Positions 1-28,838 of a stretch of DNA of 64,000 bases are shown in pieces. Origin of the DNA: Tricharina praecox (taxonomy: Eukaryota); the NCBI RefSeq assembly GCF_024521635.1, contig NW_026250421.1, positions 124,001 through 188,000 on the forward strand. Direction: 5' to 3'. Positions within the stretch are counted from its first letter, which is position 1, and every line of letters starts with the position of its first letter. Under the pieces are notes generated by a model that made no database searches, was not told where the DNA came from, and saw only the letters and a program-made list of their open reading frames with translations. Both the position numbers and the translations under genes were made by a program.

Positions 1-543
1 CCGGTCCCGTCAGGCCAGCCCTGCTCGGCTCAGCCCAGCTTGTCCTCAATCCGTTCCGACACTTTTTTTTTTCCCCTTCTTTTTTTCCTTCGCTGTGGAG
101 CGGAGGAGGGAGGGGTGTGGAGGGGAAGAGTGGAGGGGATACAGTACGGTATGCGCGAGGGAGGGATCTAGACAGCTGTTGTCTTCTTCGATTTTTTTTT
201 GATTTTTTTTTGGTGGGCCATCTCGTTGTGGGCATCGAGAAAGAGCAGGCTGCGTATGTACTGCGTGCTGCAGTGCTGCAGGTTGCACTCTACGGTACCT
301 AGGGTGGAGCAGAGTACTATCTGTAGAGTAGGGACCTTCGATGAAGTGCGTTCAATGTACTCTACATCTACATTCTTGTTACCTACACATACATCCACAC
401 ACACACATGCACACACACATACATGAACGAAGGGATTGACTGACTGGGAGAAGTCCGCAAAGTAAGTACGGTACACTAACTACGGTACTCTACGACACAA
501 CACGACGACGTCGGCGTCCCATTGGCGGCTAACGACCGGGTTA

Positions 544-600
544 GCCCACTAGCCCTCTAGCCCACTAGCCCACTAGCCCACTAGCCCACTAGCCCACTAA
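544..600. repeat. Tandem repeat (CCCACTAG)n, about 7 copies
   Basis: Direct reading: cccactag ccctctag cccactag... with one variant unit. Confidence 0.9.
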
Positions 601-16192: not shown

Positions 16193-18415
16193 TCATGACC
16201 ACACGTCCTCCTGTAAACGCGGTAGGTTAGTACATGGTTACGTGACGGGTAAGAGTGTAGGATAGTTGAGGGAACATACCTGGTACAAGTTGCTACTCCG
16301 CAGCCTCTTGACCAAATCGTGGCCTTGCTCCTCCGTCAATCCCCGCTCAGCAGACAAGATCTTGCCGAGCGTGGAGTTGACCTCTCGCGCCATGTGAGCG
16401 GCGTCACCGCAGACATAGAAGAACGCGCCCTGCTTGATGAGCTCGTTGACCTCCTTGGCGTGTTCGCTCAGTCGGTGCTGGACGTAGACCTTTTGTGGTC
16501 CGTCGCGGGAGAAGGCAGTGACCAGCTGGAAGGCATCACCTAGTTTTTCGGCGTATTGCTGTCACATGTTAGCTCGAGCTCGAGCGACAACATCTCGGCA
16601 CAACGGAAAGTTGCAACTTACTTTCCATTCATCCTGGTACAGGAAGTCTTCGCTCTCCTTGCGACATCCAAAGAAGAGAAGTGTCTTTCCAACCTTCTCG
16701 CCCTTCTCCGCGAGGGCGGCGCGCTCCTGGATGAAACCGCGGAAGGGGGCGACACCGGTACCGGGTCCGATCATGATGATCGGCTTAGAGGGGTCGCTGG
16801 GCAGCCTGAAGTTGGAGCTCCGGACATGGACCGGCACGTGAATTCCATCGTACTTGTTGCGGGGTCCAGTGATCGCGTAAGTCAGTCCGTGGGGATCGGG
16901 TGACGGGTCGCCTTCCTGCTTCTGCTTGAGTGCCAAAAGGTAGTTGGTCGTGACACCCTTCAGAACGTGAGGGGCGCCGGGCATGCTGACGCGCTCGACG
17001 ACGGCGGTGATGGTCGGGACCTTGTTATTGACGAGAGACGAGGACGAGATCGAGTAGTAACGGGGCTGGATGCGGTTGAGACCTTCAATGATGATCGAGA
17101 ACGGGACCGCCGACCAGACCTGGTTGGGTGAAACGATTTCGAGAACCTGGGCGATGTTGAGGTAGCGCTGAGAGATGAATTCCGAGAAGTAGGCCTTGTC
17201 GCCTCCGAGGCGGGTCATCTGCTCCTTGGCTCCCTCGGTGGGCGCGAAAGCGGCAAGGGAAGCAACGTACTGACGGGAGACGGGGGCGCAGATTTCGATG
17301 TGGTAACGAACCGCAGCATCGTACGTGGTCGGCGTGGGGAAAGGGACCTTGGAAGTAGAATCGAGACCCTTGACGTCGATGACCTGGTGGCGTTTTTCTT
17401 CCATTCCGAGGACCTTGAAGAGCCGATCGACCTCTGCTCCAGCATTGGTGGGCCAGACCGCCAGGTGATCTCCGGTGGTGTAGGTGAGGTTAGAGTTAGA
17501 CAGATCGATCTCCATGTGAAGGCAATTGCGGCCCTTGACGGTAAAGCATTCCGTGGACTGCTTGATCGGGGCGATGTACGGGTTGTGCGAGTTGTAAGGT
17601 CCGACGGATTTGCCCTCGAGGTGGTTCTTGTTGGGTTCTCCGAGGTACACGATGTCGTCTTCGGGGGTGAGGTCGGGGCGCTCGGTAACGGAGAAGACGG
17701 CCTCGTAAACTGCTTCACGTTCCTCCAGACCCATCTCTTGCTGCAACTCGGTCCACATGGTCTCCTTCCACGACAGGAAGTCCTCCTCCATGGTACCCGC
17801 TCCATCGTCACCTTCTCCGGCAGGACCGATCCTCTTGGCGCCCAGCTTGGAGAGGGACTCATCGATGCGGCGGACGACGGCATTGTAGTGCTCGTAGGTG
17901 TTGTTTCCGAGTCCGAAGGCGACGTATTTGAGGTTGGTGAGAGGCTTTTCCGCGTTGTCTTCCGAGAAGGTGGGTTCGCCGTTGTGGATAAACTCGTAAA
18001 ACTCGACCGCGTTGTCGGTGGGCTCTCCTTCTCCGTAAGTGGCCAAAACGAACACTATAACCTTATCTTCGGGGAAAGTATCGAGGTTCTCGTAATCGTA
18101 ATCTTCGAGGTCCGCAACCATAGTCTTGAGTCCGAAACGTGCTTGTCCTTCCTTGGCTAACCGAGAGGCGTAATCCTCAGCGGTACCGGTCTGCGATCCG
18201 TACAGGATAACCATGTTCTTATCGGACTCGTCCATCTTCTCAATCAAGTTCCTCGTTTTGCCGGACTTGCCGCCGGCACTGAGAGCCTTGTTGTAGGCAT
18301 CGGCGGAAGAGCCGCCCTTCGACCACAAAGTTCCTTTCGTGAAGTACGCGACTGTGCCGAGAAGAAGAATCGCGAGGACAACAATGTCCAGTGTATCGAG
18401 AGGTAGGTCTGCCAT
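16193..18415 (-). CDS. cprA: NADPH-cytochrome P450 reductase, 3 exons
   Basis: N-terminal TM anchor; FMN motifs YGSQTGTAE and ATYGEGEPTDNA; FAD motif PRYYSISSS; NADPH motifs GPGTGVAPFRGF and FYVCGDA; ends YQ|EDVWS*. Confidence 0.97.
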
Positions 18416-20188
18416 CGCTGTGTTTGGAGGGGTGTGAAACACAATGGAGGTGGGGAGGGGGTAGTGGGTAGAGATCAGCAAAGAGTTTTTCTCTCTTTCT
18501 GTCTCGGTAGGAGGGCGGAGGTTGTGGTTGTGATGGAGTGCTCAGAGAAAAGGAGAGACGGAAGCAGGAGCAGTCGTAGTTATGAAGACCCGAATCGGTC
18601 ACACCCAACCGAGGAAAGATTTGAACAGATTGCAACAACCACCAGATGCGCAACCAACAACAACACAAGCCTTCAGGGCAAGCACACACAAATGTATGGA
18701 CTTATGTACCGTGGAGCTAAGTTGAACCGGAAAGGAAAGGAAGCGATTCCACAGAGCAGGGGAGAAGGTGGGATGAGGGTTTCTCGAATGAGAGTGAGGC
18801 GAGGCGGCTTTAAGCGTACAGAGATCGGTGGCAAGCGTCGGGTTCCCGGGTTCGTGCAGTGGGGGGTTGCTGTGGGGGGATGGTTCCGATAGATAATATA
18901 GTAGTAGATATCTCTCCACTCACTCGCTCGTTCGCTTTCTATATATTTATTCTGAACCACCAAATCGAGAAGGATCGAGTAGTTATAGTTCTTACTTCGG
19001 GTGAGTGAGACGGGGAGGAAAGAAGCCTTGCTTGATGACATGAGATGGGGGCGCGGCTTCGACTGATGGTGGCTCGTGAGTGGCCATCTGCCACCTGCCA
19101 TCCGCCATCCGCCGTATGCCATCGCTCTGTCTGTGTCTTTCTGGTACCATAGGCCCAAGTAAATATAGAACTGTTTGACGGCCGAGACAAAAGTTCTCAT
19201 GAGTGCGAAGGAGAGAATACCTGTGCACGTAAAACACGTTCCGCACGGAAAATCCCACTGCCGGAAGAGTGATTCGGAGAAGGCTTATGCTTCCTTGTAC
19301 ATAGCATGCGGACGTGTGTATATAGTAGTAGGCCTCCACATGGTGTTTCGTGGGCCGGGCACAGGCCAAAATAGATCTGCTCGACCTGCTCGGTGGAGAT
19401 GGGCGGCGTGTATGTAACCACTGCAGAGTAACTTCAAAAATCTTCTTGACCTGCTCGTTGGAGATGGGCGACGCACGACTTCAAAGCTGTCACAATGTCG
19501 TTTCAACTCCAGGTGCATATGTTCATACCTATGTACTCAGGTATCCCATAGGTACCGTATTTCTAGACGTTGATCGTCCTGGAATCCTGGATGCGCCGGA
19601 TGTTTCCAAATACCCATCGCCGTCACAAGGCATCTGTTCTTCTCCCGCCTTCCGCGTCCAGAGATCCGAGACACTCGGTTATCTGGTTGTCCCCCGCCAC
19701 CTGATGGTCCGATCAACTGTCGAGCTTTCGCCCTGTGTAACATCGTCGACCAATTCAACCGTCGCAAAGACAGCAACGGGCGTGTCGGATGTTTGCGCGG
19801 GACATCATCCGTGACCGATTGGTGGGGAATTTTGTGGGGTTGGTTTGCGGGGTAGCTTCTTGGTACTACATATTGTGCTCTAGCCATATAGCTACCGGTA
19901 CTTGGGTTTGCCGAGACGGCGGTCGGGTTCTCCTCTTGGACGTGGGGATGGATATACGGTTTGATACCGATACTAGCTCACGTGCAATGGAGCCCGGAAT
20001 GCTTCCGCTGCACTTTGGGGAAGACCCGCTGTAAGGTGGGTCTGTAGATTACGCTTCCTGCATGACAACAGGGCGCGTGCTCGATCTCCTCGCCTACCTA
20101 GTAGCTGACCACCGGGCACCGGCTGTGGGATCTTTTTGGTGGTGTCAGTAGCTCTCACTCGTTTCACAATGCCAAGTCTCCCACTACC

Positions 20189-20195
20189 TATAAAA
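20189..20195 (+). promoter_or_regulatory. TATA box (TATAAAA) of the U1 snRNA gene
   Basis: Starts 45 nt upstream of the ATACTTACC 5' end, followed by a pyrimidine-rich spacer. Confidence 0.7.
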
Positions 20196-20233
20196 TCCTC
20201 CACCCTCCTCCTACTCTCCTTCTTTTCTTTTTC

Positions 20234-20370
20234 ATACTTACCTTGACACGAGCTTGTTGGCTCACTAAGCAGTGAGCTCCGGAAGCGACGACCCCCATTG
20301 CACAGAGAGGGTCAAAGCCTTTGCGAAACGTCTTCGGATCTTTCGGTGTCGCAATTTTTGATTTCTTTCT
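20234..20370 (+). ncRNA. U1: U1 spliceosomal snRNA (3' end approximate)
   Basis: 5' ATACTTACCT splice-site recognition sequence; helix H GACAC/GTGTC; SL1 GAGCTTGTTG-[GCTCACTAAG]-CAGTGAGCTC; SL2 GACCC...ATTGCAC...GGGTC with the U1A loop; SL3 capped by C(TTCG)G; Sm site AATTTTTG at 20353-20360. Confidence 0.92.
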
Positions 20371-22217
20371 CTCCTATGATGTGTATAGTATTTTTATTGT
20401 TGCTTGGGCGAGTCCGAGGCTGCGAGGAAGATACATCCATATACATACCAAATCAGGTAAGGAGGAGATGCACAACCCGTGGTAGATTTCGAAGGAGGCT
20501 ATGGGTGATCAGTGATTCACTCGTCGTCATAGATGTCACGCGAAAGAGATAACTTGCCCCCGGTTTCAGGCGATCACCGCGGGCCGCTCGACGAGAGCCG
20601 GGTCGGACACTGGATGGGAAACGGAGTGTGCGTATTGCCATGATCTAGTTGGGTCGCATGATGCAATCACTGATCAAACAGAACCCGCGGGCCGGAGGTG
20701 TCCGACAAAATCACACCCCTTCACCGAGCGTCACCCCCGTTTACGTTGCATTCATCGAATCTTGTCTACATCTTTCCATCCGTACAATGGCAAGAATCGT
20801 GAGGCCATTTCCAATCCATCTGCATGTTTCCCCGAGTGACATCATGTGTTTACACTCGCTTTTGGTATGTACCACATACTGGAAACATCTTCTGGAAGCC
20901 TGCTCGTACTATATAGGTACTTACTTACCCAGCAGGCACAATCATGGCCTCCTCTGGGAAGCCCCCGATAACCAAGTAGATAACCCAATACTCTCCATCC
21001 CACGTGTCACCACTACCTACATCGGCAAACACGTCCCAATCCCTCCCGCCCACTCGCTGCCCCCAATCGACAAGCCCGTACGTATGTACTGGCCTCACTG
21101 TACTGGTACATAGCCCACCCACACTACAGTACTTCGATCGCCGGGTGGAAGGGGGTTCACAAGGAAGGCGGCCGGTCTACATACGATGCTGTTTACACCG
21201 CCAGAATCCACTGGAAACATACCAAACCCCAACGGAGTCGATATATACCAGAAAAGGACGGCATAGGGATAACTGCAAGATAAAGGGCGGTATCCTCGCT
21301 ACCGACAACCGCTCGAACGGGCAGGAGTGGATCGCCTGTCTACTACATAGTTATACCGGTAGCCTGGCAACGTCCGACCGAGTGGCGCCGCATCTGGAGG
21401 TTTTATTACGGTGGATACCTAGATACCTACTCCGCGCAGGTGCGCGGTGCGATTGTGTCTCTGGAGATTAGGGGAAAAAACGAACCTCAAAATGACCATG
21501 TGGCATGAGAATGATGAACCCCCCTGCAATTGCCGTCCGTGCACCCAGCAGAAACTCAAGATTCGGGAGAGGCACCCACGGAAGAACAGCTGAGTGGCTA
21601 TTATCAGTTACTGGAGTCTGGAATACGGGAGCAGAACTTTGTTGCTACGATAGAACGGCCCGGAAGGTTTTGGAGGGCTTCGATAAGTACAAAGTACCTA
21701 CTTGCGAGGAGGTTATGGTACCAGTAGTGGAACGACATGTCATTCGTGGTCGTAAGGTGCTCAGGTTTGAATATCCGGCGGAGTCTCACCGTCAGTAGAG
21801 AGGAAATGATAGTAATAATGATGGTTAATGTCCACTTCCTACCGGCGGTATGTGTAGTAGGCCCAGGATTGTCTGGAATGTTCCATTTTATCGGAGGGAG
21901 TTCTATGAAGTTTGTACTTGCGCTGCACCATGACTCCATAGAAATCTAACAATCTTCTCTCTGCTTAAGAATATTCTAAAGGAATCACTCCATTTCCCTA
22001 ACCTAACCGGATGCATGCTATAACAGAAAACATAAACGATTGCATAAAGGCATTATAAGAGACACACTCAAGTTGGTATGTACTGGTACAAGACAAGTAG
22101 AAAAGAGGGAAAGGGAATGATATGTAGAGCGGAATGGAGAGAAAAAAAGAAAAAGAAGAAAAAGAAAAAGCGCACTCGCGTTACCAGCCGGGACCACCAT
22201 CATTTCCAGCCTCTCCT

Positions 22218-25200
22218 CTACAAACCACTCTCCCCCTCCTCCTCCTCCTCTTGCTCACCATCCTCCTCATCTGTAAGCTTTTCCTCCACATCCTCCACCG
22301 TTGGTTCCTCCTCCTTACACGAGCACAACGCCGCGATCTCCACCTCCCCCAAACCCGCCAACTTCTTCAATGCAATCTCCGCCGCGGCAACACGCGCAGC
22401 TTTGATTGAATCGGCATTTGCCCCTGCAAAGACCTTTCCGTGAACGACAACCGCTGCAAAGTTGGTCACATACTCGGCAGTCTTAACTTGGTCTGAGTCC
22501 CAACCCCATTTTTGGCAACCGAGGACCTCAAGTTTTTTGGTTAGGAAAGTGGTCGGATGCTGGCCTGCGAAATCTATTTCTTTGGATTAGTATATCGAAA
22601 GCGGAGAGGATCGGGGAAGACATACTATCGTACATGCTCATGTCCGTGAAGAAGTAGCGGATGTGATTGTTGAAAAAGTCTTGGACCAGGGAATAGTCGA
22701 ACTTGGAGTCGACGAACAGAGCGCCGATGAAGGCTTCGAGAACATCAGGAAGAATCTCTGGAGAATGTATGGTCAGCTAAGCGGGTAGATTAGAGGGTCG
22801 GGGTGCCTACTGGGCGGGTCCTCGATTCCATTATCCATCCAGAAATTCAGTTTTGTAGATCGTTCTTTTGCTTCGAGCAGAGTGCTGGCATATTTATCGA
22901 TTGCACCATCCAGCGAGCCACTCATCTTCCGGATCCTCTTGTGAAAACCGAGCAGGACACAGATGGCTCCTAGAAAACGATTCGAGACCATTGCCATCTT
23001 GTGCTCCGTGAGCCACTGGGGATTGGCCTCCGGATGGGCCAAGAAAATGTGGTCCACACACGCCAGGTCGAGAAGCGCATCGCCTATGAGTGGTTAGCGA
23101 CAGCCAGAGAAACAATATATATGGGAGCAGTGATCACTTACCTAAGAATTCAAGCCTCTGGTACGAAGGCACCCTCTCGAAGGTAAACGGATTGGAGGGG
23201 TGAGTGAATGCCGACATTAGAAGCTTTGGCGAATCGAAGCGGTAGCCGAATTGCTCCGCAATGTCATCGGCAAGCTTCGTTTGAATAGCCGTGGGTTTGG
23301 CCAATTGATAGTCAGGAATCTTATATTGCTGGTAGTATTGATCGAAAGACTGCTGGTTGTGATGCTCGGTTCTCAGCAGCGAGGTGACCATCTTCGTTGC
23401 GCCATCGTGGCCAAGGCCGATAAGCGCAGCTCCGATCAGAGCCTCGCAAACATCAGCAACCGACTTGTCTCCGAGACTCACAATACGTGAGCCCACTGCG
23501 TCGAGTCCAGACTTCTTTCCGTGGAGCAGCCTCATGTGAGGGTACCAAGTACGCCTTGAGAAACCTAGAGTCTGAATGAAATCTGGAATGCCAATCAACA
23601 TCGCTTTCTGGAAGAGATTCTGGTTGCAAATGAGGATCATGCGCTGAACGTGGAGCTGAAACTCGTTGTTCGAATGGGACTCGCAGTACAGACTGATTGA
23701 TGTGGCGAGCTTAAGATAGCAGTCGCCGAGGAATTCGAGACGCTCGTAATTGGCACCTATGCCTCTACGCTTCTCCACAGTAATTATGTTTGTGTTCTCG
23801 GAATCCTTGGTGATAGCTTCGAGTGCCAGATTTAATTCCAGCTGGTCCAATCCCAATTTCATATCCGCATCAAGCCTCCTGAGCAGCTCCCAAGCGTGGA
23901 GGTATGCGTCGATGCGCGTGCTGACAGCGGGAAATATGACAGCGGATCTAACCAGGCTTGCGGGTAATATTGAGATCATGAAGTTGGACGGAGTAATGAC
24001 TGCATCGTACACGAGTGACTTGTCTTTCTCGGTAGGAGGGTCCAAGAAGTTGAGGCGGTGCAAAAGGCGTTCTGCACGAAATACCGGCTCCTTTTCAGGA
24101 ATATCCCACTTGACACCGCCCCACTTCTTGCGCTTTCCAGCATTGTAGCTGTAGTCTTGGATGCTGTCGAAGTAATCGTGGCCAGTGATCGATTCTGGGA
24201 CTGCATCCTGGGAATTGAGCTCAGGTATAACCTCATGAGCAAAAAATCGACGTGATTTGTCAAGTTTATCCACCCAGTATCTGTCTCGGATATGGTGGAG
24301 ATTATCAGCGGTCAAGTCAAGGAATAACTCCCGGTCAGCAGCAACCCGTCCAATCAGCTCCCAATCTAGAACATCGGCCGCCCTCGGCTTTTCATCAAAC
24401 TTGTAGCCAATCACAGGCGCAAACCAGTATCGAAGAGTTTCATAGGACATTTCAAAGTGTTTGTTGAATACATCCGTGAATACCCGATTGGTGAATGTGG
24501 TCAGTAGTTCCACTTGTGCATTTGTGAGCTCGAACGGTTCTTCAAGTCGGGTTATCTTCACCTTTGAATTCCCGCCTCTGGTACCGTAGACATCGAAAAG
24601 AGACATTTTGGGTAGTTTTTCTCGGGTTCCGATGCAAAGTGGCTGCATTGCATCGCCTAGAAACATCTCATGAGGCTCCTCAACGGTGATTATTGCGATC
24701 CAGAGCTTTGTTGGCGCTGTTCCATCCTTGATGTCCCAAAAAGCGGGCTTTCGACGGAGAGTATATGTGTTTCTCTTTTTTGTGTCGACAGCAAGACGAG
24801 CGTTGGCATACTTGGGAAGTATCTTCCGGCGGACGGGGGGCAGAAAGTGCCCATTGATCGCTCTCTGTTTCCGAAGAAGCAGTACTGTCTCGAAGGCTGC
24901 TGCTCTCTTGGCGAGAGCTCTCGTCCTTTGGGGCTTGCACTCATACACTCTAATAGGGGAGCCTTCCGGTAGAATCAATTGGCAAGTAAATTGTCCACAT
25001 CCAGCCGGCCGCACGACATATATTGGTGGTGAGCTGGCTTCGCCGTACCCAGTATTCTGGGTTAAGTTAGCCATCTAGAGACACGAGCGAGTAAGAGGAG
25101 GTGCCTTACCAAATGTGCGGCGTATGTCGAGATGAACTGCATGGCTAAACTGTGAGTCAATTTGGCTCCAGTTTCTTCCTCATTATAGTAGAGCTCGTTG

Positions 25201-27370
25201 CCTGTGTTTCCTTCGGGGACAGGTTCGCTCTCGTCTAGAAATCGATCTGGGGGAAGGCTCTTGCAGAAACTCTTCATCGTCTTCTCGAACGTGAGGACGT
25301 CCCTAATGAGGTTGCTATGCTCCAGATTTCCTTTCTCGATCATGTGGAGATACAGAGAGCTACGGTCACGAGCTCGTCCACGAGACTGCACGTACTGGAT
25401 CATGGTGTTGTATATGTCGAATCTTATCACCAAGTTGCAATCCGGAACGTCGAGTCCTTCCTCGGCAACTGATGTCGCAAACAAACAGTTCAATATGCCA
25501 AGCTTGAAGCGATGCACATTGACCATCTGCTGCCGAATCGTGAAGGTCCCGTCACTATCAGCACCAGTCCGACTACCAAGGAGCACTCCTGCACGAAAGT
25601 TCTCAGAAACTTGATCTTTGAGGCATTCGTAGATAGTTCTGGCTGCTAAACGTCTCTCGATGAAGATGATGCATTTTGTCTCAGGGTTTTCGTTGTATGC
25701 CTTTTGGAGTTGTCTCCAGAGCAGCCAGACCTTAGGGCTGACGTCTCCTTCCAGCATCTTGGGAGGTCCGTATTCGTGTAGAGCAACATAATCCTGGGCT
25801 TCACGGATCATTTGGAGGTCTCGCTCTAGTTTTTCCCATCGCTCAGCTGGATCGCGGGTGCCAGCTGCCTCCTCAGATTCTCGCTCGGCTTGTCTCGCCA
25901 ACTTCTGAGAATGTCGCTCAGACAGTGCAAACGACCAGGATCGATCCGCACACCAAGGGCCTGAAAACATCATTTAGCAATGGACCCATATGCCACTGTT
26001 GAATCGGGATAACCTACCAAGCTCGGTACTGGCCTGCTTTGCGAAGGCAAAGGCGCGTTGCAAGCAGGAAACGTTTCCGAATTTGTCGTGAAGCTGTCGG
26101 TAAAGATCGGTCTCAAAGGGCTGTTTTCTAGCCCCTTCATAGATCATCACCCTCTCCTGGGGACGAAATTCGCTCCGCTTGAGGAATGAGATGTGCTCCG
26201 ATGTGTAGATACGACAATACAGGAGCTCCTCTAACTCCCTGGATTGTGTCAACAGTCAATTCAAATTGGCCGAGAAAATGGGGAATCACTTACGATGCCG
26301 CCCGATCAACTTTGGTCTTACTATTCGTGTCAATTGGAGATGCCGTCATCCCAAAGATTTTAGGACGGTTTTTCGCTGGCTCGGGGCTGTAAAAGTCCCT
26401 CATTATTTTGGCATACGCATGATTCTTCTTTGCATGGTGGGCTTCGTCAAAGCAGATCAGATTGATGTCCTTTATCAATATGAAGCCGCGACTGAGGCAG
26501 ACGTTCAGCACGTCGGCAGTCATCACGATGACTAGCTCATCGTCGAGAATCTTGGACCAGGTCTCAAGTTTCCACATCTTCTCGGTGTCGCATTTGGCGC
26601 CGTAGTACCTTCCAACCTTGGCATCGAGATTGTTGGCCAGGACCGAAGATTGTTGAAACACCAGATTGACAGAGTCCACCAGGAAGAAACTGGCGCGACG
26701 ATGTCCACCGGCTTTGCGGTTTTCCAGCTCCTCGCTGATCATGTGACGGATGAGTAGGCAGGCAATCAACGTCTTTCCAGAACCTTTGACTTGATTAGCA
26801 CGACCGTTTGAGTTTACCCCAGGGTGGAACTACCGGTGTCGAGAACAGCCAGCACGTTCATCTGCTTGGCTAGCTCGAAGATCTCCAACTGATACTCTCT
26901 CGGCGTTGAAATGACCTCTGCAGCCCCTCTGTTCGCTAAAGCGGCCATAGAGAGCTTGTGATCATCCTCGTCGGCGATTGTCTTCTTGGGACTCTTTTCT
27001 TCGAACTTCCTAATTTCTTTTTCGAGCCTGTCCATGTACAAGTGATGAAATCAGTCCCCGACCGACACTTAAGATTGAGGCTGAGTGATTACCAAGCATT
27101 GAATCCGGCCTTTCGCTCGAGACGAGCTGCCGACATCTTCTTTTCCTTTCGCCGGTCTAGCGAGGTTTCGGACACACGGAGGGTGAGAATCTCTCGTTCG
27201 TCGCCGTTCGACCGAGCATCAGCATTATTTCCGATCTCATGGCCGTTATCTTGGTCGTTTTGGTGATCTTTCGTGAAAGTGTTCTCGTCTTTTGGATCGA
27301 TCGATGAGGTCTCTCGATCCTGTGCTTCCTTCGCTAGGATGTGATCTAACAAGTCGCCCATGGTAGACAT
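22218..27370 (-). CDS. dcl1: Dicer-like protein 1 (helicase, Dicer dsRBD, PAZ-position region, two RNase III, C-terminal dsRBD), 9 exons
   Basis: Helicase motifs DTG|SGKT, DEAHH, GMTASP, ATSVAEEGLDVPDCN and YVQSRGRAR. RNase IIIa NYERLEFLGD...ADVCEALIGA; RNase IIIb SYQRLEFLG|DA...PDVLEAFIGA. HPTTFL plus the C/H/CxC zinc ligands point to the DCL1 type. Confidence 0.93.
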
Positions 27371-28317
27371 CGTGAATATGCGGTATGCGGTATGCGGTAT
27401 GCGATGAGCAGTGTCAGCTCCACCTCCGTTGTCGTCTGGCGTGCGAAAGAGTAACTCGTGAGATCGTTGCGGGGGGAAGTCGAGGAGAATGATCGCTGCA
27501 GACTGAACCTGTTCAATGTGATGGGAAGTAGAGTGTTGGGAGAGTGAGCAAACAACTCACAGTATGGCGTTACTGGCAGCTTAAATATATAGAGGTTTGG
27601 AACTTCGTGTCTAGCCTCAACTCCACGATTCCTGGCGTGATGTAGTGAGAAGATTGCAATTGATGGGGTTGTTTGATGGCACGATAGGTCTACTAGTAAT
27701 TAGGTCGCACCCCGCTCGCTAGATCCCTGCTTCCGCACTCACATCATCTCTAAATGTGGATGCAGATGTCAGATCAGGGTCAGCGATTCTGCAGTGTGAG
27801 TTTGGGCTTCAACCCGTTTGGCCTCTGTCTACTAGAGGGTGCTAGAATAGTTGTGAAGTCTATCTACGGGTTAGGGTTGTAGGGCTGAGGTACTTATTGA
27901 TAGCTCCTCTAGGTTGAATATGGTTGGGGACTCTTAGAACCGATGGAAAATATAGCCTATTTTCTAGCTCCAACCACTTCACCAAAGAGCTTCTTTTCAA
28001 CAGAAACTTGTTATTAACGGATGGAGAATCGCATGGCCGACATTAAAATAACGTCCGATTGATCTTGAGGAGTGTGGTTGTGGAGTTTAAGGATTTACAA
28101 ATTAAATCATTCTGTATGGAGGCGTACTAATGCCCCCTGTTATCGACCAATTCACTTATGTTTGCACCAAATTTACCCATTTTGGGCCTATCTATAGGTA
28201 GCCAAATCGGGTAATCTAAGAACAACCATAAGCTGAGAATTGGACTAAATAGGCCTAAAATCGAATTGAAAATCTCTATTTCTTCTAAATAAAAGAAAAC
28301 TCATAAATTGCTATTTG

Positions 28318-28467
28318 CTGTAATGTGTGAGGGGGGGGGGGGGTAAAAAAATACGCTTTTTTCCGTATCGGTACGGTCAAAAAGCGCATTAGTACGGTCA
28401 AACCACGTATTTTGACCGTATCGATACGGAAAAAGCGTATTTTTTACCCTCCCCCTTCACTATACAG
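28318..28467. mobile_element. MITE-like inverted-repeat element (about 150 bp)
   Basis: The left arm GGGTAAAAAAATACGCTTTTTTCCGTATCGGTACGGTCAAAA is the near-perfect reverse complement of the right arm TTTTGACCGTATCGATACGGAAAAAGCGTATTTTTTACCC. Pairing extends outward imperfectly. The context is AT-rich and no TSD is clear. Confidence 0.6.
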
Positions 28468-28838
28468 TTACCCTTTTTGTAATTAATTCGATTTTTCAAC
28501 GAATGTCCCATCTTTTGGTTCAAGGAGTCTCCAACCATGACTCCTCTAGGTTAGATAGCTCCCGGTACGATTAGAAACCTTTCGGGCAATGAGCTGAAGG
28601 ACGTAGGGTGGTCTTGGGAGATGGGAAGTCACAAAGTAGATGCAAGTACTTTCTACGCCCAAAGGTCGAAGAGCCAGTTCTTTCGGCAGGACTGCTGCTG
28701 CAGTATTTCGAGAAAGTGCTTCCACTGAGTCTGGCTTTAGAAATTTAGAAGATTGGTGTAAACGTCTCTTAATTGGTACAGAGATCTATGATTCTCTATG
28801 AACGAAGAGCCGATATGACACCCATTTCCCATGCTCCA

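Follow-up and report, generated by a model that had tools for sequence, protein, structure and literature searches.

What kind of gene is a U1 small nuclear RNA (snRNA) gene that departs from the human type at its 5' end, in the loop that binds U1-70K and behind its Sm site? Such a gene lies in a 64,000-nucleotide (nt) stretch of Tricharina praecox DNA (contig NW_026250421.1, positions 124,001 to 188,000; hereafter the window, with positions counted from its first letter). A preliminary description, made from the sequence of the window alone, recognized a core U1 architecture with its own TATA box, and the match to the Rfam U1 family (RF00003) and a TATAAAA at -45 bear this out. It also listed three departures from the human-type RNA, namely an altered loop I, a U at nt 11 of the 5' end, and no stem-loop IV (SL4) after the Sm site, all of which are present in the sequence. 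Two explanations were offered at that time: a U1 remodelled in one lineage along with a co-evolved U1-70K, or a variant paralogue with a specialised role. We consider it probable that neither is needed and that this is a standard U1 gene of a short, SL4-less type found in filamentous ascomycetes, with a conserved hairpin in its 3' flank that acts as an RNase III signal.

The identity of the gene is clear. RF00003 matches 20234-20365 (+) over the whole model (positions 1-166) with 46.5 bits, at an E value of 1e-10 in a search of 401 nt and of 1.7e-8 in a search of both strands of the 64-kb window, where it is the sole U1 match. This is a real U1 gene, far beyond chance. A default Rfam scan of the window is blank, as 46.5 bits is below the RF00003 gathering score of 69.5; the score falls short because the 30 model positions of SL4 are replaced by 2 nt in the Rfam alignment. 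The features by which a U1 is recognized include the 5' AUACUUACCU, a four-way junction made of helix H and stem-loops I to III (SL1 to SL3), the U1-70K loop nucleotides, the SL2 loop AUUGCAC, and, 3' of the junction, an Sm site fitting AAUUU(U/G)UG(G/A). All of these are present, and the human-type feature that is absent is SL4 directly after the Sm site. There the sequence reads UUUCUUUCUCUCC and forms no hairpin. The earlier statement that no stem-loop follows the Sm site is correct for this position, but a conserved hairpin lies further downstream, at 20389-20433. It extends past the end of the range first given for the gene, 20189-20400, which does contain the U1 but spans the promoter, the gene and part of the 3' flank rather than the RNA alone. 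Folded as a whole, the 197-nt stretch has an uninformative z-score of -0.02.

To what extent the three departures belong to this gene can be judged from a comparison set. Metagenomes were scanned with an exact pattern, made up of ATACTTACCT, CATTGCAC and AATTTTTG separated by gaps, that leaves nt 11, loop I and everything 3' of the Sm site unconstrained. The scan yielded at least 115 loci, which are a sample and not a census. Among the 115 listed loci, nt 11 is G in 46, and 44 of these 46 carry a GGGG...CCCC-type SL4 hairpin directly after the Sm site; the mean minimum free energy (MFE) of the 45-nt tail over the 46 loci is -15.1 kcal/mol. U occupies nt 11 in 69 rows (68 listed loci and the window) and A in one locus. 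No hairpin was found directly after the Sm site in any of these U-at-11 rows or in the A-at-11 locus among the matches listed, and over the 67 U-at-11 rows in which all 45 nt of the tail are present the mean tail MFE is -5.4 kcal/mol. Loci L015 and L034 share G at nt 11 with human-type U1, yet they have an SL4-less 3' flank and the conserved 3' hairpin (27.8 and 39.9 bits with the hairpin model introduced below), so nt 11 and the loss of SL4 are not strictly linked. These two loci were left out of the class set, which after removal of duplicates holds 64 distinct SL4-less sequences: 63 metagenome loci and the window.

The SL4-less class is real U1 under selection. Its RNAalifold consensus comprises helix H and SL1 to SL3, with 36 pairs, 35 of them showing compensatory changes, and nothing after the Sm site. 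Nt 11 is U in 63 of the 64 sequences; in the window this nucleotide, U20244, pairs with G20351 in helix H, and the corresponding column pair is U-G in 56 of 64. The Rfam scores divide in the same manner, with 11 of 11 SL4-less loci scanned below the gathering score (43.6-62.3 bits) and 5 of 5 SL4-bearing loci at or above it (69.8-155.5 bits). The low score of the window is typical of the SL4-less class. With the window included, the gathering score missed 12 of the 12 SL4-less U1 sequences tested. This threshold appears too strict for the class, and default annotation would therefore tend to leave U1 unannotated in these genomes. The contigs also differ in their gene neighbourhoods. On SL4-bearing contigs other snRNA genes occur within 300 nt of U1, for example U4, U1 and U6 on one strand in L078, and a U5 beside the U1 in L014 (40-154). 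In the 11 SL4-less loci that were scanned with Rfam, no neighbouring snRNA genes were seen within 300 nt on either side.

Loop I raises the question of the protein partner. At loop-I position 2, C is present in 37 of the 64 sequences and A in 27. The other positions are either nearly fixed (G27 in 64, U29 in 63, C30 in 64, A31 in 63 and A35 in 58) or, at 32, 33 and 36, vary freely. The loop decamer of the window occurs once in the 64 sequences, and there are three instances of GCUCACCAAG, which differs from it by one nt at a freely varying position. The loop columns were excluded from the tree (120 tree columns), on which the A/C state at loop-I position 2 changes at least 12 times, and at least 4 of these changes are forced by supported branches. 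The window falls in an eight-row clade in which every member has C at this position. L049 and L090 are 96.9% identical, yet differ there.

The published contacts of U1-70K give these counts a meaning. As described for the human U1 small nuclear ribonucleoprotein, G28 is stacked between Arg172 and Tyr112 of U1-70K, U30 is packed on Leu175, C31 and A32 stack on the phenylalanines of the ribonucleoprotein (RNP) motifs, and A29 and A36 form an intra-loop pair (PMC4383343). When the two sequences are aligned and the contacts taken from that structure, the window keeps G27, U29, C30, A31 and A35, the counterparts of human G28, U30, C31, A32 and A36. The A-to-C difference at loop-I position 2 corresponds to human A29, in the RNA-RNA pair. 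A second difference from the human-type loop, U33, corresponds to human G34 and falls on a position that varies freely in the class. Since the protein-contact positions are near-invariant and the A/C state at the RNA-RNA pair position flips often, a co-evolved U1-70K is not required. The idea of a remodelled U1 survives in another form: all three features do mark a large U1 class, but they are not special to this gene. The altered loop I and the loss of SL4 are standard across the 64 SL4-less sequences, an outcome of the kind that the preliminary description had itself named as counting against its reading. On sequence grounds, U at nt 11, C at loop-I position 2 and the absence of SL4 are typical of the class and are not gene-specific specialisations.

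This class can be compared with known U1 RNAs. Human-type U1, as represented by RF00003, shares with the window AUACUUACCU, the four-way junction, the SL1 core G-UCA--AA, the SL2 motif AUUGCAC, SL3 and the Sm site. It differs in having SL4 and G at nt 11, whereas the window has no SL4, U at nt 11 and C at loop-I position 2. The U1 of Saccharomyces cerevisiae has U at nt 11 of its 5' end and carries yeast-specific insertions. Like the window it has no human-SL4-like structure after the Sm ring, and its Prp21 is without the C-terminal, UBL-bearing half of SF3A1; unlike the RNA of the window, which is ~132 nt with a compact, metazoan-like core, it is 568 nt long (De Vries et al. 2022, PMC8833184). 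The absence of an SL4 analogue in budding yeast means that SL4 is not defining for U1 across fungi. Where SL4 is absent, U1-U2 bridging in these intron-rich fungi cannot use the human SF3A1-UBL/SL4 contact.

A U1 of the expected size is described from Aspergillus fumigatus, in which two U1 loci differ at nt 128 and the RNAs U1-1 and U1-2 measure 132 nt as cDNA and 130 nt on northern blots, U1-1 exceeding in abundance every clone other than those of rRNAs and tRNAs (Jöchl et al. 2008, PMC2377427). In its account of the stem-loops, the same paper says that the arrangement matches Rfam and makes no remark on the absence of SL4 (PMC2377427). The 132-nt cDNA equals in length the 132-nt Rfam match in the window, a likeness in published size, and nt 128 is a variable position just after the Sm G in the SL4-less class. 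In this class the distance from nt 1 to the Sm G is 124-130 nt, so an RNA of 130-132 nt ends a few nt past the Sm site and has no room for SL4. The mature 3' end of the window's U1 would accordingly be expected ~4-7 nt past the Sm site.

What lies beyond that point is conserved in a different manner. Across loci, the Sm site is followed by a variable spacer, (C)UUUUCAYYR, a short hairpin of unrelated sequence, and YRRRGAAGA(R). In folding, the U-rich and purine-rich runs pair to give a single hairpin of 40-52 nt with a 1x1 internal loop. The spacer between Sm site and hairpin is 3-39 nt in loci with a typical 40-52-nt hairpin and is not conserved in sequence; it is 28 nt in the window. We built a covariance model, R1, from an alignment of 49 hairpins, in which 12 of 17 pairs show compensatory changes. 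R1 matches the window at 20391-20431 (17.2 bits, E 0.018), and the local fold of this hairpin has a 17-bp stem, -14.3 kcal/mol and a z-score of -2.24. Among loci L001 to L100, R1 gave 58 matches in 57 of the 62 SL4-less loci and none in the 38 SL4-bearing loci. The five SL4-less loci without a match are L033, L075 and L100, together with L063 and L098, whose flanks are just 16 and 7 nt long. Loci that were outside model building still matched (L001, 40.4 bits; L034, 39.9; L008, 34.9; L026, 34.8; also L015). L045 has a second, weaker match (556-599 (+), 20.2 bits) ~70 nt downstream of its first (440-484), behind the same U1 gene.

The pairing of the 3' hairpin was also measured against controls. 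Paired columns hold 92.2% paired cells, versus 51.5-62.6% when partners are slid by 1-3 columns, and 183 double-changed cells, versus 24-45 when slid; 0 of 500 shuffles reach the observed values. The alignment used here was fitted to R1, which favours R1, and the slid controls carry the same bias. In 54 distinct hairpins the loops are 3-6 nt. The base of the stem is conserved in sequence as well as in structure (C-G in 54 of 54, U-A in 49-51 of 54), and the inner two-thirds covaries freely, with no conservation of sequence. Stems in the class have a median length of 17 bp and range from 7 to 21. One other R1 match in the window, at 69-127 (+) (19 bits, E 0.005), was rejected as probably compositional: it sets a pyrimidine run against a purine run, contains a 17-nt insert, and has no Sm-like site in the 68 nt upstream.

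Could the hairpin simply be a stem-loop IV that has been displaced downstream and is retained in a mature U1 of ~200 nt? In every case it follows the Sm site on the same strand, and conservation of structure, plus that of sequence at its base, is as expected of a functional RNA domain. The spacer, however, is of variable length and unconserved, the A. fumigatus RNAs leave room for only ~4-7 nt past the Sm site (PMC2377427), and the analogous hairpins of Schizosaccharomyces pombe are described as lying outside the mature snRNAs (PMC8421224). We regard a displaced stem-loop IV as very improbable. By analogy with the size of the A. fumigatus U1, the hairpin of the window would likewise be outside the mature RNA.

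The closest known counterparts are signals for RNase III. In S. pombe, the RNase III Pac1 binds snU1, snU2, snU4 and snU5, its removal leads to read-through by RNA polymerase II (Pol II), and hairpins with loops of 3-5 nt and stems of 23-32 nt are predicted directly downstream of all four snRNA genes (PMC8421224). The hairpins of the SL4-less class share with these the small loop (3-6 nt here) and a position immediately downstream of a Pol II snRNA gene, beyond the end of the mature RNA. They differ in their shorter stems and in a base that is conserved in sequence across many species, and cleavage here is putative. Rnt1 substrates of S. cerevisiae are comparable in position and in a presumed role as entry site for 3' trimming, and differ in being AGNN-capped stems; AGNN tetraloops are present in none of the 54 hairpin loops, and UGNN in 4. 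Seipelt et al. are said to have reported in 1999 that Rnt1 cuts pre-U1. Given the lack of AGNN loops, an RNase III site in this flank would be of the loop-independent, Pac1 kind, and by analogy with the Pac1 sites of fission yeast we infer that RNase III cuts the 3' hairpin. Spliceosomal cleavage, which forms the 3' end of fungal telomerase RNA, was considered as another route to the 3' end and set aside; no 5'-splice-site-like sequence was seen after the Sm site, by inspection only.

Upstream sequences also have features in common. Complete upstream sequence is available for 57 loci. In these, nearly all TATA[AT]A motifs begin in the range -58 to -34, with one at -134, and 15 of the 57 have one in the interval -50 to -25; other loci have TATA-like variants, identified by eye. 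GCCAAG/CTTGGC is present in 27 of the 57 upstream regions (-130 to -41), compared with a shuffle mean of 2.5 and a count of 14 for the best 6-mer in 200 shuffles, and may be an snRNA promoter element. CTAGCG, TTAGCG, GTGCAC and CACGTG are also enriched, each in 11-13 of the 57. As judged by motif and position, the gene in the window retains both the upstream and the downstream signals of its class.

From these parts we propose the following path to the mature RNA. Pol II would start at A20234, directed by the GCCAAG element at -63, the TATA box at -45 and the C/T-rich tract. The primary transcript would extend through the conserved hairpin at 20389-20433, which a nuclear RNase III (the Pac1/Rnt1 orthologue) may cut, also promoting termination. 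The Sm ring could then halt trimming by a 3'-5' exonuclease from the cut. The mature product, ~132 nt in length, would consist of the 5'-splice-site-binding end, helix H, SL1 to SL3 and the Sm site, with no SL4.

Several observations weigh against reading the locus as a standard U1 gene with an RNase III signal, and they concern the comparison set, the hairpin and this particular copy. The scan pattern demands the AAUUUUUG Sm site, the 5' AUACUUACCU and the SL2 motif CAUUGCAC, which limits what could be sampled; the invariance of AUACUUACCU in the set is no evidence, since the pattern demanded it. In addition, the metagenome loci are presumably fungal, a taxonomic origin for which the evidence consists of an Ascomycota-like gene next to the U1 in the window, the grouping of the window with the loci, and the size of the A. 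fumigatus U1. The neighbouring open reading frame (ORF), at 16562-18481 (-), resembles NADPH-cytochrome P450 reductase clusters in which the commonest phylum is Ascomycota.

For the hairpin, the difficulty is the length of the stem. In RNase III sites of this kind a stem of about 20 bp or longer is expected, in which bulges are tolerated. The median of 17 bp is below both the double-stranded RNA helix of at least 20 nt quoted as the requirement of Pac1 and the 23-32-nt stems of S. pombe (PMC8421224). The hairpin of the window itself scores 17.2 bits, versus 26-53 bits for most R1 matches; scores are likewise low in its clade mates (L052, 17.2 bits; L099, 16.6; L053, 15.0; L071, 12.6). Short stems and a sequence-conserved base leave room for a reader different from, or additional to, RNase III. 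Such a 3'-end or termination signal could be read by a protein that recognizes the CUUUUCA...GAAGAAG base, or could act as a pause or terminator element. The conservation at the stem base, which Pac1-type RNase III is not known to need, and the loops without the Rnt1-type tetraloop would both agree with this. The freely covarying inner stem, on the other hand, fits a reader specific for double strands, and the documented fungal cases of a hairpin immediately following a Pol II snRNA gene are all RNase III sites (PMC8421224). We find a reader other than RNase III rather unlikely.

The third group of observations concerns the folding of this copy. The window forms 30 of the 36 consensus pairs (class range 27-36), which is among the five lowest of the 64 rows, and at three stem positions that are paired in its nearest relatives among the matches listed it has mismatches, A-C and C-A in SL2 and C-C in SL3. 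Its MFE is the weakest in its clade (-36.2 versus -39.0 to -53.7 kcal/mol). The canonical SL1 has a 10-bp stem with three G-U pairs and -8.1 kcal/mol, and competes with an 8-bp hairpin at 20259-20278 of -11.1 kcal/mol, in which G27-U33 can pair without any mismatch with the 3' strand of the SL1 stem. In the predicted local ensemble of SL1, the closing pair has a probability of 0.03 in the canonical form versus 0.90 in the alternative, which buries G27-U33. The window is the only one of the 64 sequences to surrender the canonical SL1 stem. We rejected the alternative hairpin as a conserved feature, as the canonical stem is retained in L052 and L099, its nearest relatives among the matches listed.

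Weak stems of this kind could mark a diverged or decaying U1 paralogue, either a variant or a young pseudogene, with a better-folding U1 elsewhere in the genome doing the main work. The low number of consensus pairs, the three mismatches, the weak MFE and the competing SL1 hairpin, which is predicted to hide the U1-70K loop, all point that way, as does an end branch of 0.11 on the tree compared with a median of 0.07. Paralogues do occur in the group, A. fumigatus having two U1 loci (PMC2377427). Against this, the invariant positions of the class are all kept (the 5' end, G27, C30, the loop II motif and the Sm site), and helix H is maintained by paired substitutions (ACAC/GUGU in the window versus AUGC/GCGU in relatives, by inspection). 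The promoter elements and 3' hairpin are undamaged and correctly placed, and the low score of the latter is common to the entire clade. Furthermore, the nearest relatives among the matches listed (L052, L099 and L100) are only 76-79% identical to the window over all aligned columns (82% for L052 over the 120 tree columns), so the differences may be ordinary lineage divergence.

Promoter, Sm site, 3' hairpin and compensated helix H argue for a working gene, and we infer that this copy serves as the functional U1 of its genome. A decaying or diverged paralogue seems unlikely, and the specialised-role variant that was originally proposed is only weakly suggested by the weak stems. In a model of ordinary divergence, binding of U1-70K could select the canonical fold of SL1; equally, the stems could be those of a weakened paralogue. 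Contigs from three soil metatranscriptome runs included one of 147 nt that covers only 20317-20365, is less than 90% alike, and is unlike the window on both sides. It was rejected as a transcript of this locus and is a relative's U1 at best.

For the preferred reading, a standard SL4-less U1 gene with a processing hairpin, the consequences are twofold. The features that were called non-canonical are the normal state of a U1 class, and similar matches can be taken as ordinary U1 where they turn up in other stretches of fungal DNA. Only the 3' hairpin may be new, in the sense of an additional member, or a variant, of the RNase III hairpins already known to follow snRNA genes. No description of SL4 loss, or of snRNA 3' hairpins or signals, in filamentous ascomycetes was found in the literature outside subscription journals. 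A bolder proposal, which we put forward tentatively and hold to be somewhat short of an even chance, is that the CUUUUCA...GAAGAAG-based hairpin is an undescribed 3'-end or termination signal of filamentous-ascomycete snRNA genes. Such a signal, with sequence and structure both conserved, would be recognized by the Pac1/Rnt1 orthologue and would be the fungal equivalent of the metazoan 3' box; U2, U4 and U5 might share it. The proposal includes a conformational switch built into the SL1 of this U1 that would compete with U1-70K. The hairpin provides a testable handle on the formation of snRNA 3' ends in filamentous ascomycetes.

Table 1. Parts of the U1 locus in the window, with the evidence for each.
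Feature	Position	Strand	Evidence
GCCAAG motif at -63, candidate upstream promoter element	20171..20176	+	6-mer enrichment; putative function
TATAAAA box, -45 relative to the first A of AUACUUACCU at 20234	20189..20195	+	Read from sequence
C/T-rich tract up to the transcription start	20196..20233	+	Similar ...TTCTTTTCTTCTTC tract before ATAC in most of 57 upstream regions, by inspection, uncounted
U1 snRNA, 132 nt	20234..20365	+	RF00003 match; consensus fold of 64 sequences
5'-splice-site-binding sequence AUACUUACCU; 5' end AUACUUACCUU	20234..20243	+	Read from sequence; Rfam alignment
Stem-loop I, with U1-70K loop GCUCACUAAG at 20260-20269	20250..20279	+	Class alignment and folding
Stem-loop II apical motif CAUUGCAC (U1A-type loop; AUUGCAC at 20297-20303)	20296..20303	+	Sequence; Rfam alignment
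Stem-loop III, UUCG loop	20325..20344	+	Consensus fold
Sm site AAUUUUUGA	20353..20361	+	Read from sequence; Rfam alignment
Pyrimidine-rich spacer of presumed 3' extension	20366..20388	+	Distance variable and sequence unconserved in class
Conserved 3'-flank hairpin, presumed RNase III processing/termination signal	20389..20433	+	Hairpin model; local fold; family covariation

Elsewhere in the window, the U1 gene is flanked on one side by the P450-reductase ORF at 16562-18481 (-) and on the other by two long ORFs at 23134-25973 (-). By eye, the translations of the latter resemble pieces of a Dicer-like helicase/RNase III gene, which makes them a candidate for such a gene. A weak match to the C/D-box snoRNA family snoR125 (RF02409) is present at 28296-28493 (-), with 35.8 bits compared with a gathering score of 100 and an E value of 1.7e-4.

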